Shown: positions 2,996 through 63,206, counted from the first letter of the stretch. The stretch is 64,000 nucleotides of DNA from Thiohalophilus sp. (GCF_034521165.1 NZ_JAXHMV010000002.1:197467-261466); one strand, 5' to 3'. Notes: generated from the sequence alone by a model not told the origin. Numbers and translations: made by a program.

Positions 2996-3030
2996 AAAAA
3001 AAGCCCCGCGATTTCTCGCGGGGCTTTTTT
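2996..3030. terminator. bidirectional rho-independent terminator between convergent valS and csp genes
   Basis: A perfect 10-bp GC-rich stem, AGCCCCGCGA / TCGCGGGGCT, has a TTTC loop. It is flanked by an A-run on the left and a T-run on the right. Confidence 0.7.
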
Positions 3031-3052
3031 GAGACAGCAGATGTTTTAAGGC

Positions 3053-8476: not shown

Positions 8477-8480
8477 TGAT

Positions 8481-8696: not shown

Positions 8697-8761
8697 TGCA
8701 CTATCCGCCTTGTCGATTGGTTAGCTTGATTGTTTGTTTGATCGGCAATTTACGCCCGGTA

Positions 8762-10033
8762 TTATAACTGGCGCGCCATGCGCTCGCCTTCTTTCACGTC
8801 GACCATCAGCAACAGAATGCCCCCGATCAGAAACAACAGCGTCACCGAAAGAATGGCCAGCCGCGAACTGTCGGTCAGCACGGCCACCGAACCCATCAGT
8901 ACCGGGCCGATCACCGCCGCAAACTTGCCCATCATGTTGTAAAAGCCGAAAAACTCGCCGGATTTCTCCGGCGGGATAATGCGCGCGTACAGCGATCGAC
9001 TCAGTGACTGTACGCCCCCCTGCACCAGGCCGATCACCACGGCCAGCAGGTAAAACTCATACACTTCCTGCATGAAATAGGCCCAGGTGGTGACGATAAA
9101 ATAGACGCACAGCGCGATCAGTATGCCGGCCTTGGCACCTATCCTGTTGCCGAGGATACCGAACAACAGCGCGGACGGAAACCCGACAAACTGGGTAATT
9201 AACAGGGCAACAATCAGATCGTTACTGTCAAAGCCGATCGACATGCCGTAATCCACCGCCATGCGCACCACGGTATCGACCCCGTCGATATAGAGCCAGT
9301 AGGCTACCAGGAACAGGGACACCACTTTCAGTCGGCGAATTTCGGCAAAGGTATTGCGCAATTGCCGAAAGCCGCCGCGCACCGCCTTGAACACCGGCAA
9401 CCGCAATCCTTCATCGGCCGGCACGTTGAATGCCAGCGGCAGGGTAAAAAGGGCCCACCAGATGGCCACGGTGATAAAGGCAAAGCGTACCGCCTCGCTG
9501 GCATCGGTGAAACCGAACCAGGTCGGATAGAGGGTCATCAGCACATCCAGGGTAAATAACAATCCGCCGCCGAGATACCCCAGGGAAAAACCGTAACCGG
9601 AGACCAGATCGTAATGCTCGGGGCGGGTGACCTTGACGATCAACGCATCGTAGAAGATCACGCTGCCCATAAAGCCGATCACACCCAGCGCATACAGGAC
9701 GGCCGCCGCCAGCCAGGCGCCTTTTTCCACGCCGTACAGTGCCGCGGTCATGATCATGCCCAGCGCGGCAAACGACAATAACAACCGCTTGCGGGCCTGA
9801 CCGGCATCGGCGATGGCCCCGAGAATTGGCGCCAGCAAAACGATCACGATGCCGGCGACGGAGTTGGCCACCCCCAGATGAAAGGTGCTGGTGGTCGCTG
9901 CCTGTCCGGCGCTCCAGTACTGTTTGAAAAAGACCGGAAACAGTCCCGCCAGCATGACCGTGGCAAAGGCCGAATTAGCCCAGTCATACAATGCCCAGGA
10001 AAGCACTTTCTTTTCGGTGAGCAGTTTCCACAT
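8762..10033 (-). CDS. MFS transporter, UMF1/Atg22-like family
   Basis: The 423-aa product has about 12 predicted TM segments. The N-terminal SWALYDWANSAF motif is typical of the UMF1 family. It lies directly downstream of the aas-like gene. Confidence 0.85.
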   Translation of the reverse strand: MWKLLTEKKVLSWALYDWANSAFATVMLAGLFPVFFKQYWSAGQAATTSTFHLGVANSVAGIVIVLLAPILGAIADAGQARKRLLLSFAALGMIMTAALYGVEKGAWLAAAVLYALGVIGFMGSVIFYDALIVKVTRPEHYDLVSGYGFSLGYLGGGLLFTLDVLMTLYPTWFGFTDASEAVRFAFITVAIWWALFTLPLAFNVPADEGLRLPVFKAVRGGFRQLRNTFAEIRRLKVVSLFLVAYWLYIDGVDTVVRMAVDYGMSIGFDSNDLIVALLITQFVGFPSALLFGILGNRIGAKAGILIALCVYFIVTTWAYFMQEVYEFYLLAVVIGLVQGGVQSLSRSLYARIIPPEKSGEFFGFYNMMGKFAAVIGPVLMGSVAVLTDSSRLAILSVTLLFLIGGILLLMVDVKEGERMARQL

Positions 10034-12261: not shown

Positions 12262-12325
12262 CCGCTATTGATACCGGGTCACTGACCGGTTTGTAAAGGG
12301 CTTTACGTATTGTCCGGTGAACAGG

Positions 12326-12455
12326 CTGTTGAAAACGTTGGCGAGGCCGCCGATGCAAGGCAAAAATGGCCGAAAAAGCGGAGTTTATGTGTAATAAATG
12401 CGCATTTTGAGGCTATTTTTAACGCTGCAGCGGCAACGCAGGGTGTTTTCAACAG
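12326..12455. repeat. 130-bp intergenic element with 11-bp perfect terminal inverted repeats
   Basis: CTGTTGAAAAC (12326-12336) and GTTTTCAACAG (12445-12455) flank an AT-rich core. The element lies between the aas start and the prfC stop. Confidence 0.5.
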
Positions 12456-12459
12456 TCTG

Positions 12460-14040
<1,581 letters not shown>

Positions 14041-44520: not shown

Positions 44521-45090
44521 ATGTTTGAAGCCATTATCGTTCTCGCCTTGCTTGCCGTCATCTTCGGCCTGTTGCTGGGCTTTGCCTCGGTACGCTTCAA
44601 GGTGGAAGGCGATCCGGTGGTGGATCAGATCGATGCCATCTTGCCGCAGACCCAGTGCGGCCAGTGCGGTTTTGCCGGCTGCCGCCCTTACGCCGAAGCC
44701 ATGGCCAAAGGTGAGGCCGATATCAATCAGTGCCCGCCCGGTGGCGAGGCGGTGATCCAGCAACTGGCCGATCTGCTGGGCGTCGATCCCAAGCCCTTGA
44801 ACGAGGAACATGGCGAACACGGCGAGAAAACCGTCGTCTACATCGATGAGAACGAATGCATCGGCTGTACGCTCTGTATCCAGGCCTGCCCGGTGGATGC
44901 CATCGTCGGCGCCGCCAAGCAGATGCACACGGTGATCGAATCCGAGTGCACCGGTTGCGATCTCTGCATCGAACCCTGTCCGGTGGATTGCATTCACATC
45001 AAGCCGCTGGAAGAGACCCCGCAAACCTGGAAATGGCCGGCGCCACCGTTGCCGCTGGAAAAACCCCCACACGAGGCCAGCTCCTCATGA
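44521..45090 (+). CDS. rnfB: electron transport complex subunit RnfB
   Basis: An N-terminal TM helix is followed by CGQCGFAGC and two CxxCxxCxxxCP ferredoxin motifs. Confidence 0.93.
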
Positions 45091-46682
45091 AGCGCCGGCT
45101 GTGGCATTTTCACGGCGGCTTGCGCCTGCCCGGCCACAAGGCCGAATCCATGCAGGAGCCGGTGCATAGCGCCAGCATCCCGCCGCGCTTGATCGTCCCC
45201 TTGCAGCAACATATTGGCGAGCCGGCCGAGCCGGAAGTCGAAGTCGGCCAGCGGGTCCTGAAAGGCCAGCGTCTGGCCCACGCCACCGAATACGTGAGTG
45301 TCCCGGTGCATGCCCCGACCTCCGGCACGGTCCGGGCCATCGAGGAACACCCGATCCCCCATCCCTCGGGCTTGCAGGCGCCCTGTATCGTGATCGACAG
45401 CGACGGCGAGGACGCGTGGACCGAGCTGACACCCCGCCCCGATTATGCCGGGCTGGAACCGAGCGCCCTGCGCAATGTGATTCGCGAGGCCGGGATTGTC
45501 GGTCTGGGTGGCGCCGGCTTTCCCGCCTTTATCAAACTCAATGCCGGTCCCGGCAATGTCGTCGATACGCTGATTCTCAATGGCGCCGAATGTGAGCCCT
45601 ATATCACCTGCGATGCGATCCTGATGCAGGAACAACCGCGGCGCATTATCGATGGCCTGTTGATCATGCGCCATGCGGTCCAGGCCAGACACTGCATCAT
45701 CGCCCTGGAGGACAACAAGCCCCGGGCCTATGAAAGCCTGCGCGAGGCCCTCAGTGACGAGGAAAAAACCTTTATCGAACTGGTGCAGGTCCCGACCATT
45801 TACCCCACCGGGGGCGAAAAACAGCTGATCAAGGTGCTCACCGGCAAGGAAGTACCCAGTCATGGCCTGCCGCTGGATATCCACGTGGTCTGTCACAATG
45901 TCGGCACCGCCGCGGCCGTGGCGGATGCCATCCATCGTGGCCAGCCGCTGATTTCCCGTTATGTCACCGTCACCGGCGAAGCGATCGGCCAACCTTCCAA
46001 TCTGGATGTATTGATCGGCACGCCCTTCTCCGCCCTGCTCGAACAATGTGGCTGGCGCGACGATCAGGATCATGAGCTGATCATGGGCGGTCCGTTAATG
46101 GGCTTCAATGTCGCCTCGCCCGATGTCCCGGTCATCAAAACGACTAACTGTATTCTTTCCTGGCCGAGTTCCGCAGAACAACATACCCCCATGCCCTGTA
46201 TCCGTTGTGGTGAATGCGCGCGCGTCTGCCCGGCGCAACTGTTGCCGCAACAGCTTTACTGGTATGCGCGGGCGAAAAATTTCGACCGGGTGCAGGATTT
46301 CAATCTGTTCGACTGTATCGAATGCGGCTGCTGCGCCTATGTGTGTCCCAGTCATATTCCGCTGGTGCAGTATTACCGCTTTGCCAAGACGGAAATCTGG
46401 GCCCAGGAACGGGAAAAGCGCAAAGCCGACCTGGCCCGCGAACGGCATGAGTTTCGCCAGGAACGTCTCGAACGCAAGAAACGTGAGGACGAGGAACGCA
46501 AGCAGCGCAAAAAAGAAATGCTCAAAAAAAGCCAGGGCGACAAAAGCGAAAGTGACGATAACAAAAAAGCCACCATTGAAGCGGCCAAGGCGCGCGCCAG
46601 GGCACGCCGGGCGGAGTCGTCAAAAGCGGACACCCCCGCGGACGATGCGACCGCCCCGAACAATGACAAGGAAGAATCATGA
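45087..46682 (+). CDS. rnfC: electron transport complex subunit RnfC
   Basis: The start was reassigned to [12 protein letters not shown], giving an ATGA overlap with rnfB. The NADH/FMN-binding GLGGAGFP and two 4Fe-4S motifs are present, with a Lys/Glu-rich C-terminal tail. Confidence 0.93.
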
Positions 46683-47710
46683 ACCTGTCGTTACATAGCT
46701 CGCCGCATCTACAAAGCGGTAACCAGGTCAACCGGATGATGCTGGCGGTGATCTATGCGCTGATCCCCGGCGTGCTGGCGTATATGCACTTTTTCGGCCC
46801 GGGCGTCATTATCAATATCACGCTGGCGGTCGTCACGGCGCTGGCCGCCGAGGCGCTGATGCTGCGCCTGCGCAAGCGGCCGATCAAGCCGTTCTTGATG
46901 GATGGCAGCGCGGTGGTGACCGGGATTCTGCTTGGCGTGGCCCTGCCCTCACTGACACCCTGGTGGTTGCCTGTTCTGGGTGCCGGCTTTGCCCTGATCA
47001 TTGCCAAACATTTATACGGCGGGCTGGGCTACAACCCTTTCAACCCGGCCATGGTTGGCTATGCCATGTTGCTGATCGCTTTCCCGCGCGAGATGACCCT
47101 GTGGCTGACGCCCGAAGTGCATGACATCACGTTGCTCGACACGCTGCGTTATACCTTCCTGGAACAGCTCCCCGCCGGGCAAAACCTGGATGCCCTGACC
47201 GCCGCCACGCCCCTGGATGCCATCAAAACCGCGTTGTCACAGAATCTGACCCTGACCGAAATTCATAACAGCAGTACCGAGCTGTTCGGCATGTTCTCCG
47301 GCCATGGCTGGGAGTGGATCAATCTGCTGTTCATGCTGGGCGGGCTGGTGCTGATTTACATGCGCGTCATCAGCTGGCATATCCCGCTGGCCATGCTGGC
47401 GACCCTTTTTCTGGTCTCCGGCCTGTTTCATCTGAACGATCCCGACGCTTTTACTTCGCCGCTGTTCCATCTGTTCGGTGGCGCCACCATGCTCGGTGCG
47501 TTTTTCATCGCCACCGATCCGGTCACGGCGGCGACCACCAACCGTGGCCGGATCATCTACGGCATCGGGATCGGCCTGTTGCTGTATATCATCCGCACCT
47601 GGGGCGGTTATCCCGATGCCGTCGCCTTTGCCGTGCTGCTGATGAACATGGCGGTTCCCACGATTGATTACTATACCCGGCCGCCGGTCTTTGGTGAGGG
47701 GCAGTCATGA
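46679..47710 (+). CDS. rnfD: electron transport complex subunit RnfD
   Basis: This is a 343-aa polytopic membrane protein. The start overlaps rnfC by 4 nt. Confidence 0.93.
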   Translation: MNLSLHSSPHLQSGNQVNRMMLAVIYALIPGVLAYMHFFGPGVIINITLAVVTALAAEALMLRLRKRPIKPFLMDGSAVVTGILLGVALPSLTPWWLPVLGAGFALIIAKHLYGGLGYNPFNPAMVGYAMLLIAFPREMTLWLTPEVHDITLLDTLRYTFLEQLPAGQNLDALTAATPLDAIKTALSQNLTLTEIHNSSTELFGMFSGHGWEWINLLFMLGGLVLIYMRVISWHIPLAMLATLFLVSGLFHLNDPDAFTSPLFHLFGGATMLGAFFIATDPVTAATTNRGRIIYGIGIGLLLYIIRTWGGYPDAVAFAVLLMNMAVPTIDYYTRPPVFGEGQS

Positions 47711-48360
47711 TGCGGGCACTGATCAAACACATGACGATCAGCGCGGTCCTGCTGGGCGGTTTTGCCGTGATCGGTGCCGGGCTGGTCGCCTGGATCCAGC
47801 AACAGACTGCGCCCACGATCAAGGCGAACGAACAGGCCGCCCTGTTACGTAACCTCCACAGCCTGGTTCCGCCAGAGACGCATGACAACAAATTGACCCG
47901 GGATACCATCCAGGTCCGCGATGAAACCCTGCTGGGCACCCCCGAACCGGTAACGGTCTACCGGGCACGCCAGAACGGAGAGCCGGTCACGGCGATTCTC
48001 AACGTCATCGCCCCCGACGGCTATAGCGGCCGCATCAACCTGCTGGTCGCCATTCGCTATAATGGGGAACTGGCCGGGGTGCGGGTCATCAATCATAGCG
48101 AGACGCCGGGACTGGGCGATGCCATCGACGCCGACCGCTCCGACTGGATTCACAGCTTCAGCGGCAAATCCCTGGACAATCCCGGCCCGGCCGGCTGGAA
48201 GGTCAAAAAAGACGGCGGCCAGTTCGATCAGTTCACCGGCGCGACAGTCACCCCGCGCGCCGTTGTCAAAGCGGTGCATAACGCGCTTAAATATTACGAC
48301 AAACATCGCGAACAACTGTTTCGCCCAACCGACAACCCGACGACGGACGACCCGGCATGA
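47707..48360 (+). CDS. rnfG: electron transport complex subunit RnfG
   Basis: The 217-aa product has an N-terminal TM anchor and the FMN-attachment region [10 protein letters not shown]. The start overlaps rnfD by 4 nt. Confidence 0.9.
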
Positions 48361-49049
48361 CAACGAATCCCTACAGCACCCTGATCCGCGACGGCCTGTG
48401 GACCAACAACGTGGCATTTGTCCAGCTACTGGGCCTGTGTCCGTTGCTGGCGGTCACCAACACCATGATCAACGGCCTGGGCCTGGGACTGGCCACCATT
48501 TTGACGCTGGTCGTGTCGAATACCACCGTCTCGCTGATTCGCCGCTGGGTGCGCCCCGAAATCCGGGTACCGGTGTTTGTCATGATCATCGCCTCGGTGG
48601 TCACCGTGATTGAACTGAGCATGAATGCCTGGTTTCACGAGCTGTACAAAATCCTGGGGATCTTCATTCCGCTGATCGTCACCAACTGCTCAATTCTGGC
48701 GCGTGCCGAAAGCTTCGCCTCGAAAAATCCGGTCCCGCAGGCCTTCACCGACGGCCTGTTCATGGGACTCGGCTTCACCGCCGTGCTGGTCACCCTCGGC
48801 GCCATGCGTGAAATCCTGGGCTTCGGCACCCTGCTGCGCCAGGCCGAACTGATGTTCGGCCAGGGCGCCGAGTGGATGACTCTGGTCCTGTTCGAAGACT
48901 ACCGCGGCTACCTGCTGGCCATCCTCCCCCCCGGCGCCTTTATCGGTCTTGGATTGCTGATCGCCGTCAAAAACCTGATCGACCAGCGCCGCGCCGAAAG
49001 CCGCAAAGCAGCCATCGCTACAGAACAACCCGCCAGTGCCGCCACTTAA
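48357..49049 (+). CDS. rnfE: electron transport complex subunit RnfE
   Basis: This 230-aa protein is a paralogue of RnfA. The start overlaps rnfG by 4 nt. Confidence 0.93.
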
Positions 49050-49098
49050 TGGGCAGGAGGCAAGCGAATGACTTTCTCCTTTCAACGTACTGGAAATT

Positions 49099-49253
49099 AC
49101 GCCAAGAACGCCAAGGCGCAGAGAACGCAAAGGAACTGAATTTATTTTTACCATATCTTCTATTTGATTAGGCAATTTCAAAATCAATGAGCCTTGGCAA
49201 CATAAATACATTAATAATAACTTTGCGTTCTTGGCGACTTTGCGACCTTTGCA
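49099..49253. repeat. palindromic low-complexity intergenic element, copy H
   Basis: The arms are ACGCCAAGAACGCCAAGGCGCAGAGAACGCAAAGG / CTTTGCGTTCTTGGCGACTTTGCGACCTTTGCA, around an AT-rich ~85-nt core. Confidence 0.6.
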
Positions 49254-49307
49254 CCCACACAACGGGCATAAACGTTTTTTACAGCAGCCTTTAAAAAAGA
49301 ATAAAAA

Positions 49308-49943
49308 ATGAACCCCGAGAAGCGACGTGAGATTTTCAAGCGGCTGAAAAAAGCAAATCCGCACCCCACTACCGAGCTGAACTACCGCACGCCGTTTGAA
49401 CTATTGATTGCGGTGATTCTCTCGGCGCAGGCCACGGACAAGGGGGTTAACAAGGCCACCAGAGAGTTGTTCAAGGTCGCCCGAAGCCCGAAAAAGATCC
49501 TGGAGCTCGGCGAATCCGGGCTGAAGGAACACATCAAGAGCATCGGGCTGTTCAACAGCAAGGCCAAAAATATCATCAAGACCTGCCAGATCCTGGTCGA
49601 GCAGCACGCTGGCAAGGTCCCCGAGGATCGGGCCGCGCTGGAGGCCTTGCCCGGGGTCGGGCGCAAGACCGCCAACGTGATTCTCAATACGGCCTTCGGC
49701 CACCCCACTATCGCCGTGGACACCCATATCTTCCGGGTCAGTAATCGCACCGGCCTGGCGCCGGGCAAGACCGTGCTGGAGGTGGAGAAAAAACTGCTCA
49801 AGATGGTCCCCGAGGAATACAAAAAAGACGCCCATCACTGGCTCATCCTGCACGGGCGCTACATCTGCGTGGCCCGTACACCGCGCTGCGGGGCCTGTGT
49901 CATCGAGGACCTGTGCGAGTACAAAGACAAGACCGCCGACTGA
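49308..49943 (+). CDS. nth: endonuclease III
   Basis: The HhH-GPD motif LPGVGRKTANV and the 4Fe-4S cluster loop CVARTPRCGACVIEDLC are present. The gene follows rnfE, as in E. coli. Confidence 0.95.
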   Translation: MNPEKRREIFKRLKKANPHPTTELNYRTPFELLIAVILSAQATDKGVNKATRELFKVARSPKKILELGESGLKEHIKSIGLFNSKAKNIIKTCQILVEQHAGKVPEDRAALEALPGVGRKTANVILNTAFGHPTIAVDTHIFRVSNRTGLAPGKTVLEVEKKLLKMVPEEYKKDAHHWLILHGRYICVARTPRCGACVIEDLCEYKDKTAD

Positions 49944-50131: not shown

Positions 50132-50332
50132 CAGCAGCCGGTGAGCAAGCCCCGGCAAAGATAGAATATTAGCAGAAACTTATATAGAGGCCCGGACCAG
50201 GAACCATTGGGTCCTGACAGGGTCACAATTCAGGAATGGCGTGGTTTTTTTATATCATTTCTGTTGTAAGGTTGAGCGCGATACCACGACTAAATAACTA
50301 ACCAACAATGACACACATGGAGAATGCAGATT

Positions 50333-50701
50333 ATGTCTAACCGTAAATCATCGAAAACCCTGACGCTTGCCCTGGGTACGGCCTTTGCCGCCAGCATGGC
50401 CGCCAGCAACGTCGCCACAGCGGCCGAAGCCGGCAGCAACCCCTTCGCCATGAGCGAGCTGTCCAGCGGCTATATGCAGCTGGCCGACAGCCATATGGAA
50501 GGCAAATGTGGTGAAGGCAAGTGCGGCGGCGACAAGGACAAAGCCAAGAAAGAAGGCAAGTGTGGCGAAGGTAAATGCGGCGGCGACAAGGACAAAGCCA
50601 AGAAAGAAGGCAAGTGCGGCGAAGGTAAATGCGGCGGCGACAAGGCCAAAGCCAAGAAGGAAGGCAAGTGCGGCGAAGGTAAATGCGGCGGCAGCAAGTA
50701 A
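50333..50701 (+). CDS. hvfA: secreted Cys-repeat RiPP precursor (HvfA-like, eight EGKCG motifs)
   Basis: A GGAGA RBS lies 9 nt before the second ATG (50333); the ORF is open from 50324. It has a Sec-type signal peptide (MSNRKSSK + TLTLALGTAFAASMAAS + NVATAAEA) and a short segment SNPFAMSELSSGYMQLA. These are followed by 4 x (EGKCGEGKCGG + DKDKAKK-type spacer). All 8 Cys residues lie in an EGKCG context. Confidence 0.85.
   Translation: MSNRKSSKTLTLALGTAFAASMAASNVATAAEAGSNPFAMSELSSGYMQLADSHMEGKCGEGKCGGDKDKAKKEGKCGEGKCGGDKDKAKKEGKCGEGKCGGDKAKAKKEGKCGEGKCGGSK
50498..50698 (+). repeat. 3.7 tandem copies of a 54-bp coding repeat inside the precursor gene
   Basis: The units start at 50498, 50552, 50606 and 50660. 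Neighbouring units differ at only 3-4 positions, mostly synonymous third positions. Confidence 0.9.
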
Positions 50702-50719
50702 GCGGCCAAAGGAACTGAC

Positions 50720-51577
50720 ATGAACACGACAAGCTATCCTGTTCATGGCGCCGGACTGGGTCTGCGGCGGTCCATTATGGAACCGCTCGCGGACCCGTTT
50801 CCTTCGCAGGTCGATTTCATGGAAATCGCCCCGGAAAACTGGATCGGCGTCGGCGGCAGTTACGGCCGCAAGTTACGCGCGTTTACCGAACGCTATCCCT
50901 TTGTGACCCACGGCCTGTCCCTGTCGCTGGGCAGTCCCGCACCGCTGGACGAGGCCTTTTTACAACGCCTCAAACGGTTTCTCAAACAACACAATATTCG
51001 CATTTACACCGAACATCTGAGCTATTGTAGCGACGATGGACATCTTTATGATCTGATGCCGATTCCGTTTACCGAGGAAGCCGTGCATCATGTTGCCGGG
51101 CGTATCCGCCGCGTGCAGGATATCCTGGAGCAGCCGATCGCCGTGGAGAATGTCTCTTACTATGCCGCCCCGGGCAAACAGATGGAAGAAATCGAATTCA
51201 TCAATGCGGTGCTCGAAGAAGCCGACTGCCGGCTGTTGCTGGATGTGAATAATATTTACGTCAACAGCGTCAATCACCGCTATGACGCGGAACAATTCCT
51301 GCGTGCACTCCCTGCCGAACGTATCAGCTATATCCATGTTGCCGGGCACTACAATGAAGCCGAGGATCTGATCGTCGACACCCATGGCGCCCCGGTGATC
51401 GATCCGGTCTGGGAGTTGTTGAAAAAGACCTATCAGCATTTTGGCGTAATCCCGACCATGCTGGAGCGGGATTTTAACCTGCCGCCGATCGAGGAACTGC
51501 TGGACGAGGTTGACACCATCAGCGCCCTGCAACAGCAGGCCCGGCCGCAACAGGCGTTGCATGAGCAATCGAACTGA
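50720..51577 (+). CDS. hvfB: DUF692 / MNIO (multinuclear non-heme iron oxidative) RiPP maturase
   Basis: The 285-aa product has a typical DUF692 TIM-barrel motif series: [69 protein letters not shown]. It starts 18 nt after the precursor stop, with an AAGGAA RBS. Confidence 0.9.
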
Positions 51578-52355
51578 GATGACGGATTTTCAACAACAGC
51601 AATATCGCTTTGCGGCGCACATCCGCGATCCGCAGGCCAGCCCGGCCCCGGCCGATGTCGAGGATCGGCGCATGGCCATTTACCGGGAGCTGTTTTACAA
51701 CAATGTCGAAGGCTTCATGGCCGACAGTTTCCCCGTCCTGCGCCAGCTACTGAATGATGAAAAATGGCATCGGCTGATTCGCCACTATTTTGCCAGTCAC
51801 AGGGCCACCACCCCGCTGTTTCCGGAAATGCCCCGGGAGTTCCTGCATTACCTGGAGCACGAACGGACCGCCGAAGCTGACGACCCGCCGTTCATGTTCG
51901 AGCTTGCCCATTACGAGTGGGTCGAGCTGGCACTGAGCCTCTCCGATCAGGAGCCGGACTGGCCCCGAATCGATACCCAGGGCGATCTGCTCAAAGGCCG
52001 GCCGCAGCTTTCCCCCCTGGCCTGGCCGCTCAGCTATCACTACCCTGTCCATCTGATTGGCCCCGATTTTCGTCCCGACCAGCCCTCCGAGCAGCCGACC
52101 TGGTTGCTGGTCTACCGCGATGCGCGCGATGAGATCACCTTCATGGAACTCAACCCGGTCACCGCCCGGCTGTTGCAGCTGATCGACAACAGCGAACATG
52201 CCACCGGCGAGGCGATGCTCGAGCAGATTGCCGCGGAACTCAATCACCCCGATCCCGCGGTGGTCATCGAGGGCGGGCAGCAAATTCTGAACGATCTGCA
52301 CCAGCGCGGTGTCATACCCGGTATCCGGTTACCCGGTCATTCACCGGCCAGCTAA
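51561..52355 (+). CDS. hvfC: DUF2063 partner protein (HvfC/BufC/MbnC-type peptide-recognition chaperone)
   Basis: DUF2063 hallmarks [31 protein letters not shown] and ELAHYEW are present. The start at 51561 overlaps the MNIO gene by 17 nt; an alternative ATG at 51579 lies 2 nt after its stop. Confidence 0.85.
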
Positions 52356-52390: not shown

Positions 52391-52422
52391 AGCCGGCCAA
52401 TGTTGGGCCGGCTTTTCTTTTT
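52391..52422 (+). terminator. rho-independent terminator of the precursor-MNIO-DUF2063 operon
   Basis: The stem AGCCGGCC / GGCCGGCT with loop AATGTTG is followed by TTTTCTTTTT. It lies 36 nt after the DUF2063 stop. Confidence 0.65.
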
Positions 52423-52662
52423 GTCCGGACGCCGGTCACGCTTTGGGTGCTATAACTCACTGACATTAATGGTATAATACGGTCTGAATACGCCGCTCGG
52501 CGCACCCGTAAGTCTGGCGCGACTGTACCTGCCCGGCCGGCTGTAATACACTGCAACGGCCCCCGAAGAGGGGGTTGGGCCGCTATCTGGTACCAGAATC
52601 CGTTTCGGACACCGCATCCACCACCATGTCGGCCGTAAGCTGACAGTTGAACGACGTTTACT

Positions 52663-53670
52663 ATGAAAATTTCCGCCTCGATTTATTCCAACAAGCACAA
52701 GACACTGAAGGACATCGTTACCGATCTGGACGCGCACGGGACGGACTTATTTCATATCGACTGCAACGACGACCCTTCGGTTTTCGAGGACATTGCCCGG
52801 ATCCGGCAACTGAGCCGTACGCCCATCGATCTGCACATCATTACCCCGACACCCGGCAAATATTACGATCTGATTGCAAAACACGAGATCCACGCCGTTT
52901 GTTTCCAGTATGAAAATCTTCAGGAACCCCTCGCGATACCGGAAACGATTAGTGCCCGAACCGGCCTGGCCATCAGTTCCAGCACCGATATTGATGCCTT
53001 TGCACCCTACGCGGAACAACTTGATTTCGTACTGATCATGGCCACCACGCCGGGCAAGAGCGGCGGCACTTTCGACAAACACAATTTCCGCAAGATACGC
53101 CAGTTCCGCCAGCGGTTTCCACAAACCCGGATTCACGTCGATGGCGGGGTGAATCACGAAGTCTCATTCATCCTGCGCAACATGGGCGTGTATGCCGCCG
53201 TTTCAGGTTCTTACCTGATGAACAGCGACTCCATCGGCGCAGCGATGCTGAATCTCAAGACCCATGACATCGGCTCGCACTATCTGGTCGGGGATTTCAT
53301 GCGCCAGCTGGATGAGACGCCACTATTGCGCCCCGATGAATTGAGTGTGCGCAATATCCTGCAATCTATTGAGGACAACAAGCTCGGATTTACCCTGGTG
53401 GCCGACGAGAGTGATGTATTGCTCGGCATGATCACCAATGCCGATGTGCGCAAAGGGCTACTGAAACACATCGACAATCTCAATGCCCTGGAAGTCGCGG
53501 ACATGATCAACCCGTCGCCCGCTGCCGCGCGCGAGGATTTTACCGTGCAGGAACTGCTGGCCTATATTCAGGAGCAGACGTTCCCCGTCAATTATTTACC
53601 CGTCGTCAATAGCAAGCATGAGGTGACCGGTTCAGTCACATTCATGAATCTCGTTAAAGGTGAAGTATGA
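52663..53670 (+). CDS. ribulose-phosphate-3-epimerase-fold domain fused to a CBS-domain pair
   Basis: Residues 1-210 follow the RPE barrel pattern: SASIYS, FHIDCND, IDLHII, LIMATTPGKSGGTFD, IHVDGGVN, AAVSGSYL. The His/Asp metal ligands are retained. Residues ~215-335 are two CBS motifs (GMITNADVRKGL, VTGSVTFMNLVKG). Confidence 0.7.
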   Translation: MKISASIYSNKHKTLKDIVTDLDAHGTDLFHIDCNDDPSVFEDIARIRQLSRTPIDLHIITPTPGKYYDLIAKHEIHAVCFQYENLQEPLAIPETISARTGLAISSSTDIDAFAPYAEQLDFVLIMATTPGKSGGTFDKHNFRKIRQFRQRFPQTRIHVDGGVNHEVSFILRNMGVYAAVSGSYLMNSDSIGAAMLNLKTHDIGSHYLVGDFMRQLDETPLLRPDELSVRNILQSIEDNKLGFTLVADESDVLLGMITNADVRKGLLKHIDNLNALEVADMINPSPAAAREDFTVQELLAYIQEQTFPVNYLPVVNSKHEVTGSVTFMNLVKGEV

Positions 53671-54665
53671 TTATCCATTTCGACAAAAATACCGACCAGA
53701 AAACACTCGACAAGATCGGCTGGGAACTGGACGCGTTTCATATCAAAAAGCCCGACTATCATGTGATGGTCACCCCCTCGGCCCTGCAGGAAGTGCCGAA
53801 AGAATATCAAAGTATGGTCGTGGAAAGCTTTGTCTTCCCCAACGACATGCAGTTATCCAGCGCCGAATACCTGCCGGAAAAACGCCGGATTGACATCGGC
53901 GATATCAGCATCGGCGGCAACACCCGCAACACCATGATCATCGGCGGCCCCTGCTCGGTGGAATCTGAAGAGCAGATCACCTCTTCGGCCAAACTGATGA
54001 AGGAACTGGGCATTTCCACCCTGCGCGCCGGCTGTTACAAGCCGCGTACCTCGCCCTATAGCTTCCAGGGCCTGGGGGACGAGGGACTGCGCCTGCTGGA
54101 CAAGATGCGCGGCGAATACGGTCTGAACATCATTACCGAAGTGCGCGATTCCACCCATGTAGACGAAGTGATCGAAACCACCGATATCGTCCAGATCGGC
54201 GCCAAGGCCATGTACGACCAGGGGATCCTGCGCACCTGTGGCCGCAGCAACAAGCCGATCCTGATCAAGCGCGGTTTCGGCACCACGCTGCAGGAATTCG
54301 TGCAGGCGGCCGAGTTTGTGCTCTCCGGCGGCAATGATAACGTCATTCTCTGCGAGCGCGGTATCCGCACCTTTGAAACCAAGACCCGTTTCACGCTGGA
54401 TCTGTGCGGCGTAGCCTATCTGAAGGAATACACCAACCTGCCGATCATCGTCGATCCCAGTCATGCCATGGGCTATCGCTACGGCGTACCGGATCTGGCC
54501 CGCGCCGCCACTGCCATGGGCGTCGATGGCCTGCTGATTGAAGTGCATCCCGATCCGTCCGTCGCCAAGTCCGATGCCTCGCAACAGCTGGATCACGATG
54601 CCTTCCGGCAGCTGATCGGTACCCTGCGCCCCATCGCCGACGCCATCGGCTATCATATTGTCTGA
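53667..54665 (+). CDS. 3-deoxy-7-phosphoheptulonate (DAHP) synthase, type I-beta, with N-terminal ferredoxin-like regulatory domain
   Basis: The motifs IIGGPCSVES, YKPRTSPYSFQGLG and VDPSH are present. The ~70-aa N-terminal extension resembles that of Thermotoga-type DAHPS. The start forms an ATGA overlap with the upstream gene. Confidence 0.85.
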   Translation: MIIHFDKNTDQKTLDKIGWELDAFHIKKPDYHVMVTPSALQEVPKEYQSMVVESFVFPNDMQLSSAEYLPEKRRIDIGDISIGGNTRNTMIIGGPCSVESEEQITSSAKLMKELGISTLRAGCYKPRTSPYSFQGLGDEGLRLLDKMRGEYGLNIITEVRDSTHVDEVIETTDIVQIGAKAMYDQGILRTCGRSNKPILIKRGFGTTLQEFVQAAEFVLSGGNDNVILCERGIRTFETKTRFTLDLCGVAYLKEYTNLPIIVDPSHAMGYRYGVPDLARAATAMGVDGLLIEVHPDPSVAKSDASQQLDHDAFRQLIGTLRPIADAIGYHIV

Positions 54666-55152
54666 GCCTGTGGCGATTCGCGCTGATATCAAACTGCTGG
54701 CCCTGGATATCGACGGGGTCATGACCGACGGCGGTATGTATTACACCGAAGGGGGTGAAGAAGTTAAACGCTTCGATACCAAGGACGGACGCGGTATTAT
54801 TCACCTGCAGCGCGAGGGCGTGCCGGTGGCGGTTTTGAGTTCCGGCTTCAAAAGCACGATCATCGCTGAGCGCTGTAAGACGCTGGGGATTGAAAAGTTT
54901 TATGTGGGTACCGAGCCGAAACTGGATATTCTCAGGCAGTTTTGCGCCGAATTGAACATTGAACTGGCCCAGGTCGCCTATATCGGCGACGACATCAACG
55001 ATCGCGATATTATCCATGCCGTCGGCTTCAGCGCCTGCCCCGCCGACGCGGTTGGTTCAATCAAAAAGATCGTCGATGTCGTGCTGGAGAAAAACGGTGG
55101 CTATGGCTGTATTCGTGAGTTTATCGACGAGCAGCTGGGCTATCACTTTTAA
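54658..55152 (+). CDS. KdsC-family (YrbI) HAD-IIIA sugar-acid phosphate phosphatase
   Basis: The motifs LALDIDGVMTDGGMYYTEGGEEVKRFDTKDGRGI, GDDINDRD and GGYGCIREF are present. The start is TTG at 54658, overlapping the DAHPS stop, or GTG at 54670. Confidence 0.8.
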   Translation: MSEPVAIRADIKLLALDIDGVMTDGGMYYTEGGEEVKRFDTKDGRGIIHLQREGVPVAVLSSGFKSTIIAERCKTLGIEKFYVGTEPKLDILRQFCAELNIELAQVAYIGDDINDRDIIHAVGFSACPADAVGSIKKIVDVVLEKNGGYGCIREFIDEQLGYHF

Positions 55153-55168
55153 ACAACAAAACAACGGT

Positions 55169-56257
55169 ATGCCTCTGCCCTTTACCACGCCCCCGTCCAG
55201 CCTGTGCATTTTGCGCCTCTCCGCCATCGGCGATATCTGTCATACCCTGCCGGTGGTGCGCACCATCCAGCAAGCCTGGCCGCAAACCCGGCTGACCTGG
55301 ATCATCGGCAAGACCGAACATGCCCTGTTGCAGGGTATCCCCGATATCGAGTTTATTGTGTTCGACAAGGCTCGCGGCCTTGCCGCCTACCGCGAGGTAC
55401 GTCGGCAACTGAACGGCCGCCGTTTCGACGCCCTGCTGCACATGCAAGTCGCCCTGCGGGCCAGCCTGTTGAGTCGCCTGGTCAGCGCCCCGATCCGGCT
55501 GGGTTTCGATCGCGCCCGGGCCCGGGATCTGCAGTGGCTGTTTAGCAACCACCGGATCGCAGCCAGAGCGCATCAGCATGTCATGGACGGGCTGTTCGGT
55601 TTCAGTGAAGCCCTGGGTATCGCGGACAGGCAACTGCGCTGGAATATTCCGATCCCGGCGACCGATCGCCAGACAGCCGCTCAACTCGCCGACCCGGCCC
55701 GGCCGTATCTGGTCATCAGCCCCAGCGCCAGCAGTGCCTATCGCAACTGGCATGTGGCCGGTTATGCCCGGGTGGCCGGGTATGCTGTCGAACAACACGG
55801 CTTGCCGGTCTATCTTACCGGCGGCAACAGCGCCAGCGAACAAGCGCTGGCCGCTGCCATCGAAGCGAAGGCAGACAATCCCAATATCACCAATCTGGTC
55901 GGCAAAACCTCGTTAAAACAGTTACTGGCGATTCTGAAACATGCCACGGCCCTGATCACACCGGATTCGGGACCGGCCCACATGGCCACCACGGTGAATA
56001 CCCCGGTCATCGGCCTGTATGCCTGTGCCAACCCCGACCGCACCGGCCCCTATTTGAGCCAACAATGGACGATCAACCATTACCCCGACGCCGTACAGGA
56101 CAAGTACCACAAGCCGGTGTCGGAATTACCCTGGGGGATCCGGGTGCGCGACCCCGGCACCATGGACCTGATCACGGTCGAGGAAGTAGAATCGACGCTG
56201 GACCGATTACTCGACGCGCATAAAAACAACACTTCCGATAAAGATAACAACGCATGA
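55169..56257 (+). CDS. glycosyltransferase family 9 (heptosyltransferase-like)
   Basis: The start was reassigned to MPLPFTTPPSSLCILRLSAIGDICHTLPVV, a typical GT9 N-terminus (RLSAIGD). The C-terminal region DSGPAHMATTVNTPVIGLY is also present. Confidence 0.8.
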   Translation: MPLPFTTPPSSLCILRLSAIGDICHTLPVVRTIQQAWPQTRLTWIIGKTEHALLQGIPDIEFIVFDKARGLAAYREVRRQLNGRRFDALLHMQVALRASLLSRLVSAPIRLGFDRARARDLQWLFSNHRIAARAHQHVMDGLFGFSEALGIADRQLRWNIPIPATDRQTAAQLADPARPYLVISPSASSAYRNWHVAGYARVAGYAVEQHGLPVYLTGGNSASEQALAAAIEAKADNPNITNLVGKTSLKQLLAILKHATALITPDSGPAHMATTVNTPVIGLYACANPDRTGPYLSQQWTINHYPDAVQDKYHKPVSELPWGIRVRDPGTMDLITVEEVESTLDRLLDAHKNNTSDKDNNA

Positions 56258-57024
56258 GCTTTCATATCGTCATTCCCGCCCGCTACGCCTCCAGTCGTCT
56301 GCCCGGCAAACCGCTGCGCGAGATTGCCGGCAAGCCGATGATCGCCCACGTCATCGATAACGCCCTGCAAAGCGATGCCGAGCGGATTATCGTGGCCACC
56401 GACGACGAGCGTATTCTCGAGGCGACGGCGGACTTTCCGGTTGAAAGTTGTCTGACCTCGGAGCGCCACAATTCCGGTACCGAACGCATTCATGAAGTCA
56501 TCGAGAAATTCAATCTGGCTGATGAGACCATCATCGTCAATATGCAGGGGGACGAGCCGCTGATGCCCGGTGCCTGCCTGAATCAGGTGGGACATGCCCT
56601 GGCCCGGGACAGCCAGGCCGAAATGGCCACGCTCAGTACGCCGGCGGAGAGTGTCGAGGAACTGTTCGACTGGAATGTGATCAAGCTGGTCCGCGACCAC
56701 GAGGATAATGCCCTCTACTTCAGCCGCGCCCCGATCCCCTGGGATCGCGAGGCGTTTCGCGAATCAACGCCAACGCTGAATGACTTCGGTCATTTTCACC
56801 GGCATATCGGTCTGTATGCCTACCGCGCGGGATTCGTCAAACAATACATCGCCTGGGGCAGCTGCGCGCTGGAACGGATAGAATCCCTGGAGCAGTTACG
56901 GGTGCTGTATCACGGGCGCCGGATCAAGGTCGTCACCGCCGAACAGATACCCGGGCCGGGCGTCAATACGGAAGAGGAATTGCAGCGGGTTGCATCCATA
57001 CTGTCGGGTCAACAGCCGGCCTGA
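56254..57024 (+). CDS. kdsB: 3-deoxy-manno-octulosonate cytidylyltransferase (CMP-Kdo synthetase family)
   Basis: The motifs IVIPARYASSRLPGKPL, VNMQGDEPL and the HIGLYAYR pattern are present. The start forms an ATGA overlap with the GT9 gene. Confidence 0.9.
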   Translation: MSFHIVIPARYASSRLPGKPLREIAGKPMIAHVIDNALQSDAERIIVATDDERILEATADFPVESCLTSERHNSGTERIHEVIEKFNLADETIIVNMQGDEPLMPGACLNQVGHALARDSQAEMATLSTPAESVEELFDWNVIKLVRDHEDNALYFSRAPIPWDREAFRESTPTLNDFGHFHRHIGLYAYRAGFVKQYIAWGSCALERIESLEQLRVLYHGRRIKVVTAEQIPGPGVNTEEELQRVASILSGQQPA

Positions 57025-59617: not shown

Positions 59618-60835
<1,218 letters not shown>

Positions 60836-61271: not shown

Positions 61272-62141
61272 TCAGCGACTGAGAATAATCTCCACCCGAC
61301 GATTCTTGCGCCGGCCTGCCTCGGTCCGATTGTCGAACTTCGCCTCGGTCTCCTCGTAGGCCCGGGTCGTAATCAACTTGGCATCCACCCCCTGCTCCAG
61401 CAGATAGGCCCGCACCGCATCGACCCGCTGATTGGCCACCACCCGGTTCACCCGCGACAGACCCAGGCTGTCGGTATAGCCTTCGATGCGCACCCCCTCA
61501 ACCTCTCGATCCTGACGCAGATAGCGAACCAGCCGGTCGAGCCGATTGCGCTGGGCCCGCGACAAACGGGTCTGATTGCTCTGGTACACCAGCACGGTCT
61601 GGCGTACATCCTCAAAGGTGTACGGCAGCAACCCCTCGACGCAGGCGCGAAATTCGCCCACAACCGCCGCAAAGCCCAGCGGGGAAAGCCGGACCCGGAC
61701 AACATCCTGCGGCTCGACCCAGTCCTGGTAGATAAGCGTCGGAAACAATCCTGCTTCCAGTTCCGCCATTACCCGGCGCGCGCCCGACTCTCCAAGATAA
61801 AAGGGTATCTCGCCCGGAACCACCGGCAGGTCACCCAGATCCCGGCCCTCATCATAGTGCTGCCAGCTGGCCGGCAGTGACAACAGGCGCGCCTCGCCGG
61901 CGGTGGCCGTGGCGGGTTGCTCGACCCGTACCCGGAACACCAGCTGACCATCGCTTTGCTGGCGAAATTCGGCGACGCCGTAACCGGCAATCTCGTGCGT
62001 CAGACGGCAAATCAATGCCGTCCCCTGCAACTGCCAGTCTGCTTCGGCCAGCGGGGTCGAATAGATCCGCAGGCCCGCCCAGCTCGAGGAGGCCGCCAGC
62101 AACCCGAAACTCACTAAAATCATGGAGAAAACACGCATCAT
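61272..62141 (-). CDS. motY: MotY-like flagellar stator-associated protein (OmpA C-terminal domain)
   Basis: The start was reassigned to MMRVFSMILVS, which gives a signal peptide. The N-terminal domain is followed by an OmpA-like peptidoglycan-binding domain (GYTDSLG...NRRVEI). As I recall, adjacency to argG matches Pseudomonas. Confidence 0.6.
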   Translation of the reverse strand: MMRVFSMILVSFGLLAASSSWAGLRIYSTPLAEADWQLQGTALICRLTHEIAGYGVAEFRQQSDGQLVFRVRVEQPATATAGEARLLSLPASWQHYDEGRDLGDLPVVPGEIPFYLGESGARRVMAELEAGLFPTLIYQDWVEPQDVVRVRLSPLGFAAVVGEFRACVEGLLPYTFEDVRQTVLVYQSNQTRLSRAQRNRLDRLVRYLRQDREVEGVRIEGYTDSLGLSRVNRVVANQRVDAVRAYLLEQGVDAKLITTRAYEETEAKFDNRTEAGRRKNRRVEIILSR

Positions 62142-62243
62142 ACGACCTGAAATGCAATTACCGGGCCAGCCTGACAAATTGAATTTGAATCCGCCATGGC
62201 CAATGCAGTAGCCTGACAAACAGCCCAGTACGGAACCCATGGC

Positions 62244-63206
62244 ATGGACATTCTCATCATCGATCACCAGCGGGTCAGACAGCTGGAAACCTTACCCGAG
62301 TCAGTGCCCGAAACCGGCTTTCTCTGGCTGGATATTATCCGCGGCGAGGAGAGTGACTGGCCGCAACAGGTCGAACGTCTGAGCGGTGTGAGCATCCACG
62401 AACGACACATCCGCGACAGCCAGAACCTGGAACACCCCTCCTTCTACGACGGCACTCAGGACTACGAAATGCTGATCTTCCGCGGTCTCTCCCCCGCGGA
62501 TCAGACCAGTGATTTTCAGACCCGCCCGACGGTATTTTTCGTACTCGAGCACCTGCTGTTGACCATTCGCTCTGCTGACAGCGTCTCGGTCTCCCTCGTC
62601 AAACCGCGCCTGCTGGACAAAACCGTGCGTATTCCGCGCCGGCCGGCCGGACTGATGCACCAGCTGATGACTTACATGGTAGACCGTTACCTGGCCCTGC
62701 GCGAACCCCTGCTCGATCGTTACGATGAATGGCGGCGAGATCTGCTCGATCCGCGTCGCGACTTCAGCGACTGGATGGCGGTAATGGATTACACCAGTGA
62801 CCTGCGAAAACTGGAGCGCCTGTGTGACGAACAGATCACCGCGCTGCAGGCCTGGCGTGAGGACACCGATACCGAATTCGATGATCACCTCACGGTCCGG
62901 TTCAACGATCTGGTCGAGCATATTCAGCGCGTCATTCGCTTCGCGCAGGACCAGAAAAACGAAGCTGAAGCCCTGGTACAGTTACACTTCTCCGCTGTCT
63001 CCCATCGCACCAACGAGATCGTGCGCGTGCTGACAGTGATCTCGGCGATCTTTTTACCGCTCACCTTCCTGGCCGGAATTTTCGGTATGAACTTCGAGAA
63101 CATGCCCGAACTCAAACTGGAGTACGCCTACTTCTTCGCCCTCGGCGGCATGGGTACGCTGGCTCTGGTATTGCTGTTCCTGTTCAAGATCAAGAAGTGG
63201 TTGTGA
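62244..63206 (+). CDS. corA: CorA family magnesium/cobalt transporter
   Basis: The 320-aa product has two C-terminal TM helices and the GMNF signature (GIFGMNFENMPEL). Confidence 0.85.
   Translation: MDILIIDHQRVRQLETLPESVPETGFLWLDIIRGEESDWPQQVERLSGVSIHERHIRDSQNLEHPSFYDGTQDYEMLIFRGLSPADQTSDFQTRPTVFFVLEHLLLTIRSADSVSVSLVKPRLLDKTVRIPRRPAGLMHQLMTYMVDRYLALREPLLDRYDEWRRDLLDPRRDFSDWMAVMDYTSDLRKLERLCDEQITALQAWREDTDTEFDDHLTVRFNDLVEHIQRVIRFAQDQKNEAEALVQLHFSAVSHRTNEIVRVLTVISAIFLPLTFLAGIFGMNFENMPELKLEYAYFFALGGMGTLALVLLFLFKIKKWL

Follow-up and report, generated by a model that had tools for sequence, protein, structure and literature searches.

We analysed a 64,000-nucleotide stretch of the genome of Thiohalophilus sp., a gammaproteobacterial sulfur bacterium (GCF_034521165.1, NZ_JAXHMV010000002.1:197467-261466; hereafter the window, with positions counted from its first nucleotide). 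Five co-directional genes at 52663-57024 on the + strand form the operon considered here. They code for a protein that combines a ribulose-phosphate 3-epimerase (RPE) fold with a CBS pair (RPE-CBS), an aldolase of the type Iβ DAHP synthase clade (DAHPS; DAHP, the 7-phosphate of 3-deoxy-D-arabino-heptulosonate), a phosphatase of the KdsC/YrbI family, a GT9 glycosyltransferase and a synthetase of the type that makes CMP-Kdo (Kdo, 3-deoxy-D-manno-octulosonate). All five open reading frames (ORFs) are present exactly where a preliminary description of this sequence had placed them, and family scans confirmed the domain labels given there (Table 1). The operon represents an uncharacterised variant of a Kdo-type sugar-acid pathway, one that is real and under strong conservation, and it appears to be a dedicated route to a CMP-ulosonate for the cell envelope.

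The genes are closely packed. The junctions, read from the sequence, include ATGA overlaps at 53667/53670 (RPE-CBS/aldolase) and 56254/56257 (GT9/kdsB) as well as a gap of 16 nt ahead of the GT9 ATG at 55169, all as previously described. The 8-nt overlap reported earlier between the aldolase and phosphatase genes exists only if the latter starts at TTG 54658. We favour the alternative start, GTG 54670, located 4 nt past the aldolase stop codon (54663-54665), because in most homologues from other genera than Thiohalophilus the alignment begins no earlier than residue 5. With either start, the predicted coupling of the two genes is tight. A scan of the + strand between 52200 and 57300 revealed a single terminator-like site, which lies upstream of the operon and has a T-run conserved in Thiohalophilus relatives; no such hairpin was detected inside the operon. 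On the 3′ side the operon is closed by a convergent PAS-GGDEF-EAL gene ending at 57037. Both the overlapping junctions and the lack of a terminator between the genes are consistent with the presumed co-transcription of all five.

The TATAAT hexamer and the leader that follows it are the probable promoter and 5′ untranslated region (UTR) of the operon. In an alignment of six Thiohalophilus loci, both the TATAAT and several leader blocks are invariant: TGGTATAAT at the start of the segment, blocks that include CTGTACCTG...TGTA.TACACTGCA.CGG, and GCTGACAG.TGAACGAC directly ahead of the start codon. The leader could be a regulatory 5′ UTR. A riboswitch was considered and set aside since, despite this conservation within the genus, the leader matched no Rfam family and the six close sequences gave no covariation support for a fold.

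Table 1. Features of the window, followed by the gene content of loci that carry distant or intermediate relatives of RPE-CBS (GT, glycosyltransferase; RiPP, peptide made by the ribosome and modified after translation)
Feature or locus	Position	Strand	Content or remarks
RPE-fold + CBS-pair protein (RPE-CBS)	52663-53670	+	RPE-fold residues 1-200, CBS pair ~205-330
Type Iβ DAHPS-clade aldolase	53667-54665	+	N-terminal ferredoxin-like domain; PF00793, NF006421
KdsC/YrbI-family HAD phosphatase	54658-55152	+	start TTG 54658 or GTG 54670; TIGR01670
GT9 glycosyltransferase (heptosyltransferase family)	55169-56257	+	PF01075
KdsB-type CMP-Kdo synthetase	56254-57024	+	TIGR00466
Terminator-like hairpin + T-run	52391-52413	+	closes upstream DUF2063 gene; 5′ boundary of operon
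Putative promoter and leader	52472-52662	+	TATAAT at 52472-52477, TGG before; leader ~185 nt to first ATG
RiPP precursor	50324-50701	+	125 aa, signal-like N-terminus, four EGKCGEGKCGG-type repeats
MbnB/TglH/ChrH enzyme (DUF692, MNIO)	50720-51577	+	
DUF2063/NGO1945 partner	51510-52355	+	
P0224 contig			RPE-CBS, 331-aa aldolase
L081-L083			RPE-CBS, 272-aa aldolase
L084	RraA-like 8978-9634		RPE-CBS, 270-aa aldolase, cytidylyltransferase, RraA-like
L085/L086	RraA-like (L085) 8361-8999		sugar-nucleotide genes, RraA-like, RPE-CBS, aldolase
L087	RraA-like 2254-2883		cytidylyltransferase, RraA-like, RPE-CBS
L088/L089	RraA-like (L088) 12029-12655		rmlBACD, giant GT, RPE-CBS, aldolase, fused PseF-like cytidylyltransferase::KdsC-family phosphatase, RraA-like, giant GT
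L090			RPE-CBS, 332-aa aldolase
L091	RraA-like 11528-12163		wzm, wzt with Wzt_C, GT99 protein, GT2, RPE-CBS, cytidylyltransferase, aldolase, RraA-like, KdsC-family HAD

The product of the first gene is 90-93% identical to proteins of T. thiocyanatoxydans DSM 16326, a cultured carrier, and of several Thiohalophilus metagenome-assembled genomes (MAGs). Family scans assigned it to Ribul_P_3_epim (PF00834, 95 bits) and CBS (PF00571) and found no match to the SIS catalytic domain. We do not consider it an ordinary Rpe because its score with the rpe equivalog TIGR01163 (88 bits) is below the cut-off of 213. The AlphaFold2 model (predicted local distance difference test score, pLDDT, 90) consists of an RPE barrel and a CBS pair. 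Its best Foldseek matches are human RPE with ribulose 5-phosphate (3ovq, TMt 0.79) and the KdsD CBS pairs 4o9k, 3fna and 3k2v, and none of the structural matches is a solved structure with the combined RPE barrel and CBS-pair architecture. Profile, sequence and fold all place the CBS pair nearest to that of KdsD/KpsF. The KdsD/KpsF models match RPE-CBS only at residues 209-325, that is, over the CBS pair, and E. coli KdsD aligns to it only from KdsD residue 162 onward. Entry 4o9k is reportedly such a CBS pair with bound CMP-Kdo, which would suggest feedback by the CMP-sugar.

The residues H31, D33, H58 and D160, which provide the metal and acid-base functions of RPE, and the phosphate-binding loops are invariant across both subfamilies of RPE-CBS, making it very likely that the protein is an active sugar-phosphate enzyme. 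In fold, in these four residues and in the phosphate loops it resembles Rpe and allulose-6-phosphate 3-epimerase, but it differs from them in having new Tyr, Asn and Asp residues in the active-site region and a fused CBS pair. The changes with respect to human RPE are L12Y, M39N, G41D, M72I, F147K/Q and G148S, and four of them (L12Y, G41D, F147K/Q and G148S) extend to the whole family. Of the three methionines that cushion the enediolate, M39N and M72I remove two, so that only the counterpart of human RPE M141 is kept, and one loop is six residues shorter than in the human enzyme.

The second protein scores as a DAHPS. It passes NF006421 (370 bits, cut-off 335) and TIGR01361 (325 bits, cut-off 268) and matches PF00793 with 230 bits, whereas the models of Kdo 8-phosphate synthase (Kdo8PS) give 94-132 bits, all below their cut-offs; among them are the KdsA equivalogs TIGR01362 (124 versus 314) and NF003543 (132 versus 242 bits). 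The core is ~50% identical to DAHPS of P. furiosus and A. pernix, and identity to E. coli KdsA is about 27-28%. Residues 125-137 read KPRTSPYSFQGLG, which contains the KPRT motif and not KANRS; the whole KPRTSPYSFQG loop is retained. The metal ligands C96, H266, E292 and D303 as well as K125-P-R-T128 are invariant in 71 family sequences. After the metal-ligand His we found no insertion relative to P. furiosus and A. pernix DAHPS that would correspond to the extended β7-α7 loop of Kdo8PS. The AlphaFold2 model (pLDDT 91) has T. maritima DAHPS (1RZM, TMq 0.83) as its best full-length PDB match in Foldseek. The ferredoxin-like N-terminal domain (53667-53850, residues 1-60), folded as β-α-β-β-α-β at residues 2-55, is modelled confidently (pLDDT about 90-96). 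It is not recognized by PF18152, the Pfam DAHPS ferredoxin-like domain that is listed for ordinary Iβ DAHPS having such a domain, and therefore its ligand may differ from the Tyr/Phe of the T. maritima enzyme.

Two motifs nevertheless set the family apart from ordinary Iβ DAHPS. The first reads Q[IV]GAK[AS]MYD[HQ]G in place of Q[IV]GARNxQNF, and the second DPSHA[MIL]G[YWF]xYG in place of DPSH[PA][AT]G[RK][RS]; the two sets do not overlap when 120 family aldolases are compared with 120 ordinary Iβ DAHPS. Compared with 1RZM, the domain layout, the metal ligands and the KPRTSPYSFQG loop are the same, but the protein shows invariant R180K, Q183Y and N184D changes and A[MLI]GY.Y instead of PAGRRS, none of which occurs in the ordinary set. 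In terms of the structures of E. coli DAHPS and Aquifex Kdo8PS, the first motif would lie in the β4-α4 loop, in which the DAHPS Arg presumably touches the phosphate of phosphoenolpyruvate (PEP) and R106 of Kdo8PS presumably extends to the phosphate of the acceptor in the neighbouring subunit. The β7-α7 loop, which presumably closes over the acceptor in Kdo8PS, would contain the second motif. PDB entries of the A. aeolicus R106G mutant are among the structural matches of the aldolase. Taken at sequence level, the invariant substitutions suggest a changed acceptor.

The phosphatase belongs to the YrbI/KdsC subfamily (TIGR01670, 148 bits, cut-off 107) but does not reach the KdsC equivalog NF007019 (137 bits, cut-off 208). 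Its best model, that of the B. thetaiotaomicron-type phosphatase of Kdn 9-phosphate (Kdn, 2-keto-3-deoxynononate), gives 163 bits, again below the cut-off (180). It is 37% identical to E. coli KdsC, compared with 47-50% for the lptC-linked KdsC of relatives. Judging from these values, it is a paralogue distinct from housekeeping KdsC. The GT9 protein (PF01075, 177 bits) stays below the equivalogs of heptosyltransferases I/II/III (TIGR02193, 122 versus 185; TIGR02201, 121 versus 170; TIGR02195, 82 versus 135 bits). In contrast, the last protein scores as a KdsB equivalog (TIGR00466, 304 bits, cut-off 155).

We scanned one genome per species for relatives of RPE-CBS (88 in total), fetched 80 loci and clustered the flanking ORFs. 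Of the 76 loci where contig ends leave room for it, 75 have the aldolase gene as the next one downstream of RPE-CBS; the two are separated by 10 nt or less in 67 of these 75, mostly through 4-nt overlaps of the ATGA type. A KdsC-like phosphatase gene follows the aldolase within 2 kb in 57 of 66 loci. Conservation of the gene order in relatives, proposed earlier as a check, is very strong, and it is broad for these three genes: the clusters contain RPE-CBS from 78 loci, the aldolase from 72 and the phosphatase from 59, but KdsB from only 17 and GT9 from 8 of the 80. Since only the first three are broadly conserved, we regard the Thiohalophilus operon as a three-gene cassette joined to GT9 and kdsB; what is conserved as a functional unit comprises two or three genes at the head of the operon, and GT9 and kdsB are lineage-specific additions. 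The carriers are gammaproteobacteria of the Thioalkalispiraceae and Ectothiorhodospiraceae type and many Bacteroidota (Cyclobacteriaceae, Flavobacteriales, Chitinophagales and others). The flanks of the cassette are otherwise unrelated among them, and in Bacteroidota it is sporadic and its contexts are variable. Two Bacteroidota loci have a KdsB gene upstream of the cassette, immediately adjacent in L022 and separated by one gene in L023. The arrangement of RPE-CBS and aldolase genes, found in two phyla, is far beyond chance. No shikimate-pathway gene is present among the conserved neighbours in the 80 clustered loci. A tblastn search of PLSDB for plasmid-borne copies returned only ordinary rpe genes.

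Two loci deviate from the common pattern. L050 (JBCCTI010000117.1, 1655-2656) is the sole one with downstream room where the aldolase does not follow RPE-CBS, and it may represent a decayed or rearranged cassette. In the Thiohalophilus-like MAG contig JAXHTI010000019.1 (L004, 11996-13163), the match to the phosphatase ends at residue 129 and that to GT9 begins, some 100 bp away, at residue 133, a pattern suggesting either a ~0.5 kb deletion across the phosphatase-GT9 junction or an assembly artefact.

A more distant branch of the family was revealed by searching 1.84 billion representatives, which yielded 106 RPE-CBS clusters (50% identity) at E ≤ 1e-30. The full RPE+CBS architecture persists to ~25% identity. 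For seven of eight distant or intermediate members, a DAHP_synth_1 gene adjoins RPE-CBS or is one gene away from it; the eighth (L087) is located on a short contig that ends 200 bp into the next gene. Even RPE-CBS homologues of 25-31% identity still lie beside a DAHPS-like gene with the same signature. The distant aldolases of 268-272 aa carry it in a related form (GAK[AS]M[YF][DN]H; SH[AS][MI]G..[FY]G), and their scores likewise place them with DAHPS rather than Kdo8PS. L088 and L091 contain all four functions (Table 1), and therefore the activities encoded by the window operon are found together once more in an independent lineage. In L091 the cassette genes are situated further along the same strand as wzm, wzt and a gene for a GT99 protein, a homologue of WbbB (structures 5fa0 and 8csb). 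WbbB is a retaining β-Kdo transferase of family GT99 that uses CMP-β-Kdo (PMC9587256). L091 thus resembles the O-antigen clusters dependent on an ABC transporter in which WbbB-type enzymes terminate chains, an arrangement where a CMP-ulosonate caps the glycan; the known systems use housekeeping CMP-Kdo, whereas L091 has a five-gene sugar pathway of its own. Within or directly beside the window operon, the part of the window scanned for it, no GT99 gene was found. Recurrence inside polysaccharide clusters is the strongest evidence for a CMP-activated Kdo-like sugar acid, and it argues against a DAHPS of the aromatic pathway.

A constant extra member of the distant branch, absent from the window clade, is an RraA-like protein of ~210 aa from the family of HMG/CHA aldolase-oxaloacetate decarboxylases. 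Its best NCBIfam matches include the RraA-like half of archaeal hexulose-6-phosphate synthase fusions (66 bits, cut-off 593). Because 3-deoxy-2-ulosonates are 4-hydroxy-2-oxo acids, this protein may act on the sugar acid itself.

The link to lipopolysaccharide (LPS) genes is most direct in ten gammaproteobacterial loci (L007-L015 and L021), where the cassette together with kdsB stands between yrbG, a gene for an antiporter, and kdsC-lptC-lptA-lptB-rpoN-hpf-ptsN, with mlaA, mlaFED and murA on the other side of the cassette. The gene identities were verified with NCBIfam models, and yrbG itself falls inside the fetched stretch in eight of the ten. The homologous order in E. coli K-12 is yrbG-kdsD-kdsC-lptC-lptA-lptB-rpoN; the cassette and kdsB therefore occupy the kdsD slot, and no SIS-domain gene is present at this slot. 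These genomes keep a bona fide KdsC: in L011 it scores 216 bits (cut-off 208) and is encoded 3 kb from the cassette phosphatase (128 bits), and the cassette phosphatases are 34-38% identical to their lptC-linked neighbours. The lptC-lptA-lptB-rpoN locus is not within the window. Using verified E. coli KdsA, KdsD, AroG and KdsC as probes (type II DAHPS was not among them), we found no canonical KdsA, no KdsD or other SIS-domain protein and no AroG-type DAHPS, either within the window or across the 1.36 Mb fetched from related loci, both being small parts of the genomes.

Conservation, synteny and independent recurrence thus support the earlier proposal of a Kdo-type pathway with an RPE-fold+CBS protein and a DAHPS-type aldolase in the KdsD and KdsA slots. 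Likenesses to the canonical E. coli pathway to CMP-Kdo, KdsD-KdsA-KdsC-KdsB, extend from the same four-step logic and order to a first enzyme with a C-terminal CBS pair, a KdsC/YrbI-family phosphatase, a KdsB equivalog as the activating enzyme and, in relatives, the kdsD position. The differences concern the enzymes themselves: the first step has an RPE-type TIM barrel where KdsD has a SIS domain, the second is on the DAHPS Iβ side and includes a ferredoxin-like N-domain, and the phosphatase fails the KdsC equivalog. Another accessory ulosonic-acid route is the Kdn pathway of B. thetaiotaomicron, which reportedly (Wang et al. 2008, Lu et al. 2009) consists of a Kdn-9-P synthase, the phosphatase BT1713 and a CMP-Kdn synthetase. 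The cassette is similar to it in the KdsC-family phosphatase and, in distant loci, in the use of a NeuA/PseF-like cytidylyltransferase. However, the Kdn route has a NeuB-type synthase and no isomerase or epimerase, in contrast to the DAHPS-clade synthase and RPE-CBS of the cassette. Full-text literature searching found no published description of the cassette, and public protein names are generic ('CBS domain-containing protein', 'pentose-5-phosphate-3-epimerase', '3-deoxy-7-phosphoheptulonate synthase'), in agreement with the preliminary description, whose author knew of no characterised pathway with this gene set.

We build the following scheme on the observed gene content, coupling, conservation and active-site signatures and on the recurrence with genes for cytidylyltransferases, phosphatases and a Kdo-type transferase. 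From the analogy with KdsD-KdsA-KdsC-KdsB and from gene order we infer the order of the pathway, its catalytic steps, substrates and product, and the regulatory roles of the CBS and ferredoxin-like domains. In the first step, the RPE-fold enzyme would turn a central sugar phosphate into an aldose phosphate acceptor by means of its metal site and aspartate pair, and the KdsD-type CBS pair would provide feedback control of this first committed step. The aldolase would then condense the aldose phosphate with PEP to a 3-deoxy-2-ulosonate phosphate, from which the phosphatase would free the sugar acid. Finally, KdsB would make the CMP-sugar, to be used in an envelope glycoconjugate on which GT9 would also work.

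As to the substrate, erythrose 4-phosphate is ribulose 5-phosphate minus C1, and ribose 5-phosphate is allulose 6-phosphate minus C1; epimerase chemistry alpha to the carbonyl applies neatly to these two central aldose phosphates. The 2-epimer of ribose 5-phosphate is arabinose 5-phosphate, which would lead to Kdo. In the most economical chemistry, erythrose 4-phosphate would be 2-epimerised to D-threose 4-phosphate, and condensation of the latter with PEP would give 3-deoxy-D-lyxo-heptulosonate 7-phosphate, a seven-carbon Kdo analogue. This compound has the ring stereochemistry of Kdo and a side chain one carbon shorter.

In our judgement the chances are about even that the cassette is a mobile three-gene route to a free 3-deoxy-2-ulosonic acid, joined in the operon to two genes of the LPS core (GT9 and kdsB), and that its product is a close analogue of Kdo rather than Kdo. 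The example we favour is 3-deoxy-D-lyxo-heptulosonate. A tetrose-derived analogue is preferred because the acceptor loop of DAHPS, KPRTSPYSFQG, is fully retained, because the phosphatase paralogue is maintained beside a true KdsC, and because distant cassettes carry their own non-KdsB cytidylyltransferase. Several points weigh against it. The ordinary-looking KdsB and the location of the cassette in the kdsD slot of relatives fit Kdo equally well, and the lack of canonical kdsA and kdsD in the stretches searched, small genome parts as they are, is what replacement predicts. As the aldolase passes the NCBI DAHPS models, plain DAHP synthesis is possible as far as the sequence goes. To our knowledge, no RPE-family aldose-phosphate 2-epimerase has been reported, and we know of no glycan from a carrier organism. 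In a neighbour-joining tree, three groups of aldolases are supported, with bootstrap values of 85% for the window-type clade, 85.5% for the distant RPE-linked clade and 95% for ordinary DAHPS (a narrow sample of A. pernix relatives). The two RPE-linked clades are monophyletic in only 15% of bootstraps, and the tree supports no particular order of the three groups. Moreover, 3-deoxy-D-lyxo-heptulosonate (Kdh) has been described as non-natural (PMC4019464).

Given the same tree, a single origin of all RPE-linked aldolases was considered and is unsupported.

A bolder and rather unlikely extension of the seven-carbon proposal is that the cassette represents the missing entry to Kdo-like sugars of this size, leading to 3-deoxy-D-lyxo-heptulosonate and then, by C7 oxidation, to 3-deoxy-D-lyxo-heptulosarate (Dha). 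RPE-CBS would in that case be the first RPE-fold aldose-phosphate 2-epimerase, and the aldolase would be retuned to the C2-epimeric tetrose phosphate. Dha occurs in prasinophyte walls and in rhamnogalacturonan II (RG-II) of plants, and its activated form was unknown in 2012 (PMC3355719). It has also been found in an Acinetobacter LPS core.

The best surviving alternative to the analogue is that the cassette makes ordinary Kdo by non-orthologous replacement, the operon being a full four-step Kdo pathway plus a core glycosyltransferase. We regard this as possible, though not as the probable explanation. Arabinose 5-phosphate would come from RPE-CBS, through isomerisation of ribulose 5-phosphate or 2-epimerisation of ribose 5-phosphate; the aldolase would be a Kdo8PS, the phosphatase would act on Kdo 8-phosphate, and KdsB would carry out the last step. 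The RPE-family enzyme AlsE acts on the allulose-6-phosphate/fructose-6-phosphate pair, and 2-epimerisation of ribose 5-phosphate is the C1-less counterpart of its reaction. The presence of the cassette and kdsB exactly at the kdsD position of yrbG-kdsD-kdsC-lptCAB-rpoN, with no SIS-domain gene left there, is in line with this explanation, as are the CBS pair of KdsD type, the high-scoring KdsB equivalog linked in the window clade, and the failure to find canonical KdsA or KdsD in the window and the fetched loci. The changes of the aldolase clade also affect the β4-α4 and β7-α7 loops, which we take to bind arabinose 5-phosphate in Kdo8PS. On the other hand, the aldolase has KPRT and not KANRS, is without the long β7-α7 loop, and scores 94-132 bits with Kdo8PS models against 370 bits with a DAHPS model. 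If both phosphatases acted on Kdo 8-phosphate, the bona fide KdsC beside the one in the cassette would be redundant. Distant cassettes bring a non-KdsB cytidylyltransferase although their Gram-negative hosts already have KdsB, and the sporadic distribution in Bacteroidota, in variable contexts, is more like that of an accessory trait. Of the two readings offered in the preliminary description, the evidence thus leans to a different ulosonic acid, while occupation of the kdsD slot keeps Kdo replacement alive.

It is improbable, in our view, that the aldolase is a true DAHP synthase acting on erythrose 4-phosphate, with free and CMP-activated 3-deoxy-D-arabino-heptulosonate (DAH) as the end product and RPE-CBS as a supply or regulatory partner that, for example, pulls pentose-phosphate flux. 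The enzyme does pass the DAHPS cut-offs and keeps all the metal and PEP ligand motifs of DAHPS together with KPRTSPYSFQG, and a sugar acid as end product would still be in keeping with the phosphatase and cytidylyltransferase contexts. However, since erythrose 4-phosphate belongs to central metabolism, there would be no need for a dedicated partner that is translationally coupled and co-diverging, and the substitutions that are invariant against 120 ordinary DAHPS suggest a changed acceptor. Neither CMP-DAH nor glycans containing DAH are known to us.

Finally, chance placement of a housekeeping aromatic DAHPS and a pentose-phosphate epimerase beside LPS genes, which the public names '3-deoxy-7-phosphoheptulonate synthase' and 'pentose-5-phosphate-3-epimerase / CBS domain-containing protein' might suggest, is strongly disfavoured and hardly probable at all, in view of the near-obligate adjacency and overlap, which hold in two phyla and persist to 25% identity, the failure of RPE-CBS with the Rpe equivalog, the recurrent linkage to phosphatase, cytidylyltransferase and polysaccharide genes, and the absence of any conserved shikimate-pathway neighbour, the cassette aldolase never being coupled to shikimate genes in the loci seen.

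In Gram-negative bacteria, sugar acids of the Kdo family anchor and cap the glycans of the envelope. The pathways that make them are both antibiotic targets and textbook cases of enzyme specificity. Current annotation of the cassette (plain DAHP synthase, 'CBS domain-containing protein') would miscount the capacity for aromatic biosynthesis and leave a sugar pathway unnoticed. A Kdo analogue as the product would mean a new activated sugar and possibly the missing route to Dha. Should the product be Kdo itself, both KdsD and KdsA would have undergone non-orthologous displacement, a natural experiment on the distinction between DAHPS and Kdo8PS. In either case the pathway comprises four small soluble enzymes and is directly testable.

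The remaining features of the window are of a more ordinary kind. Directly upstream of the operon, at 50324-52355 on the + strand, there is a RiPP-type cluster of three genes (Table 1). It looks like a known kind because it matches the published EGKCG-type bufferin or thiooxazole metallophore clusters (PMC11252979, PMC11626156, PMC12452194). Ahead of it, rnfC, rnfD, rnfG and rnfE followed by nth (endonuclease III) occupy 44856-49943 (+), an ordinary gammaproteobacterial synteny. Downstream of the operon, an ORF at 59618-60835 (-) was identified by eye as a candidate argG, and a MotY-like OmpA protein is encoded at 61272-62267 (-). A full-length cspA thermoregulator (RF01766; 88 bits, gathering score 78) was detected at 2996-3450 (-); it represents an ordinary cold-shock 5′ UTR and is unrelated to the operon.

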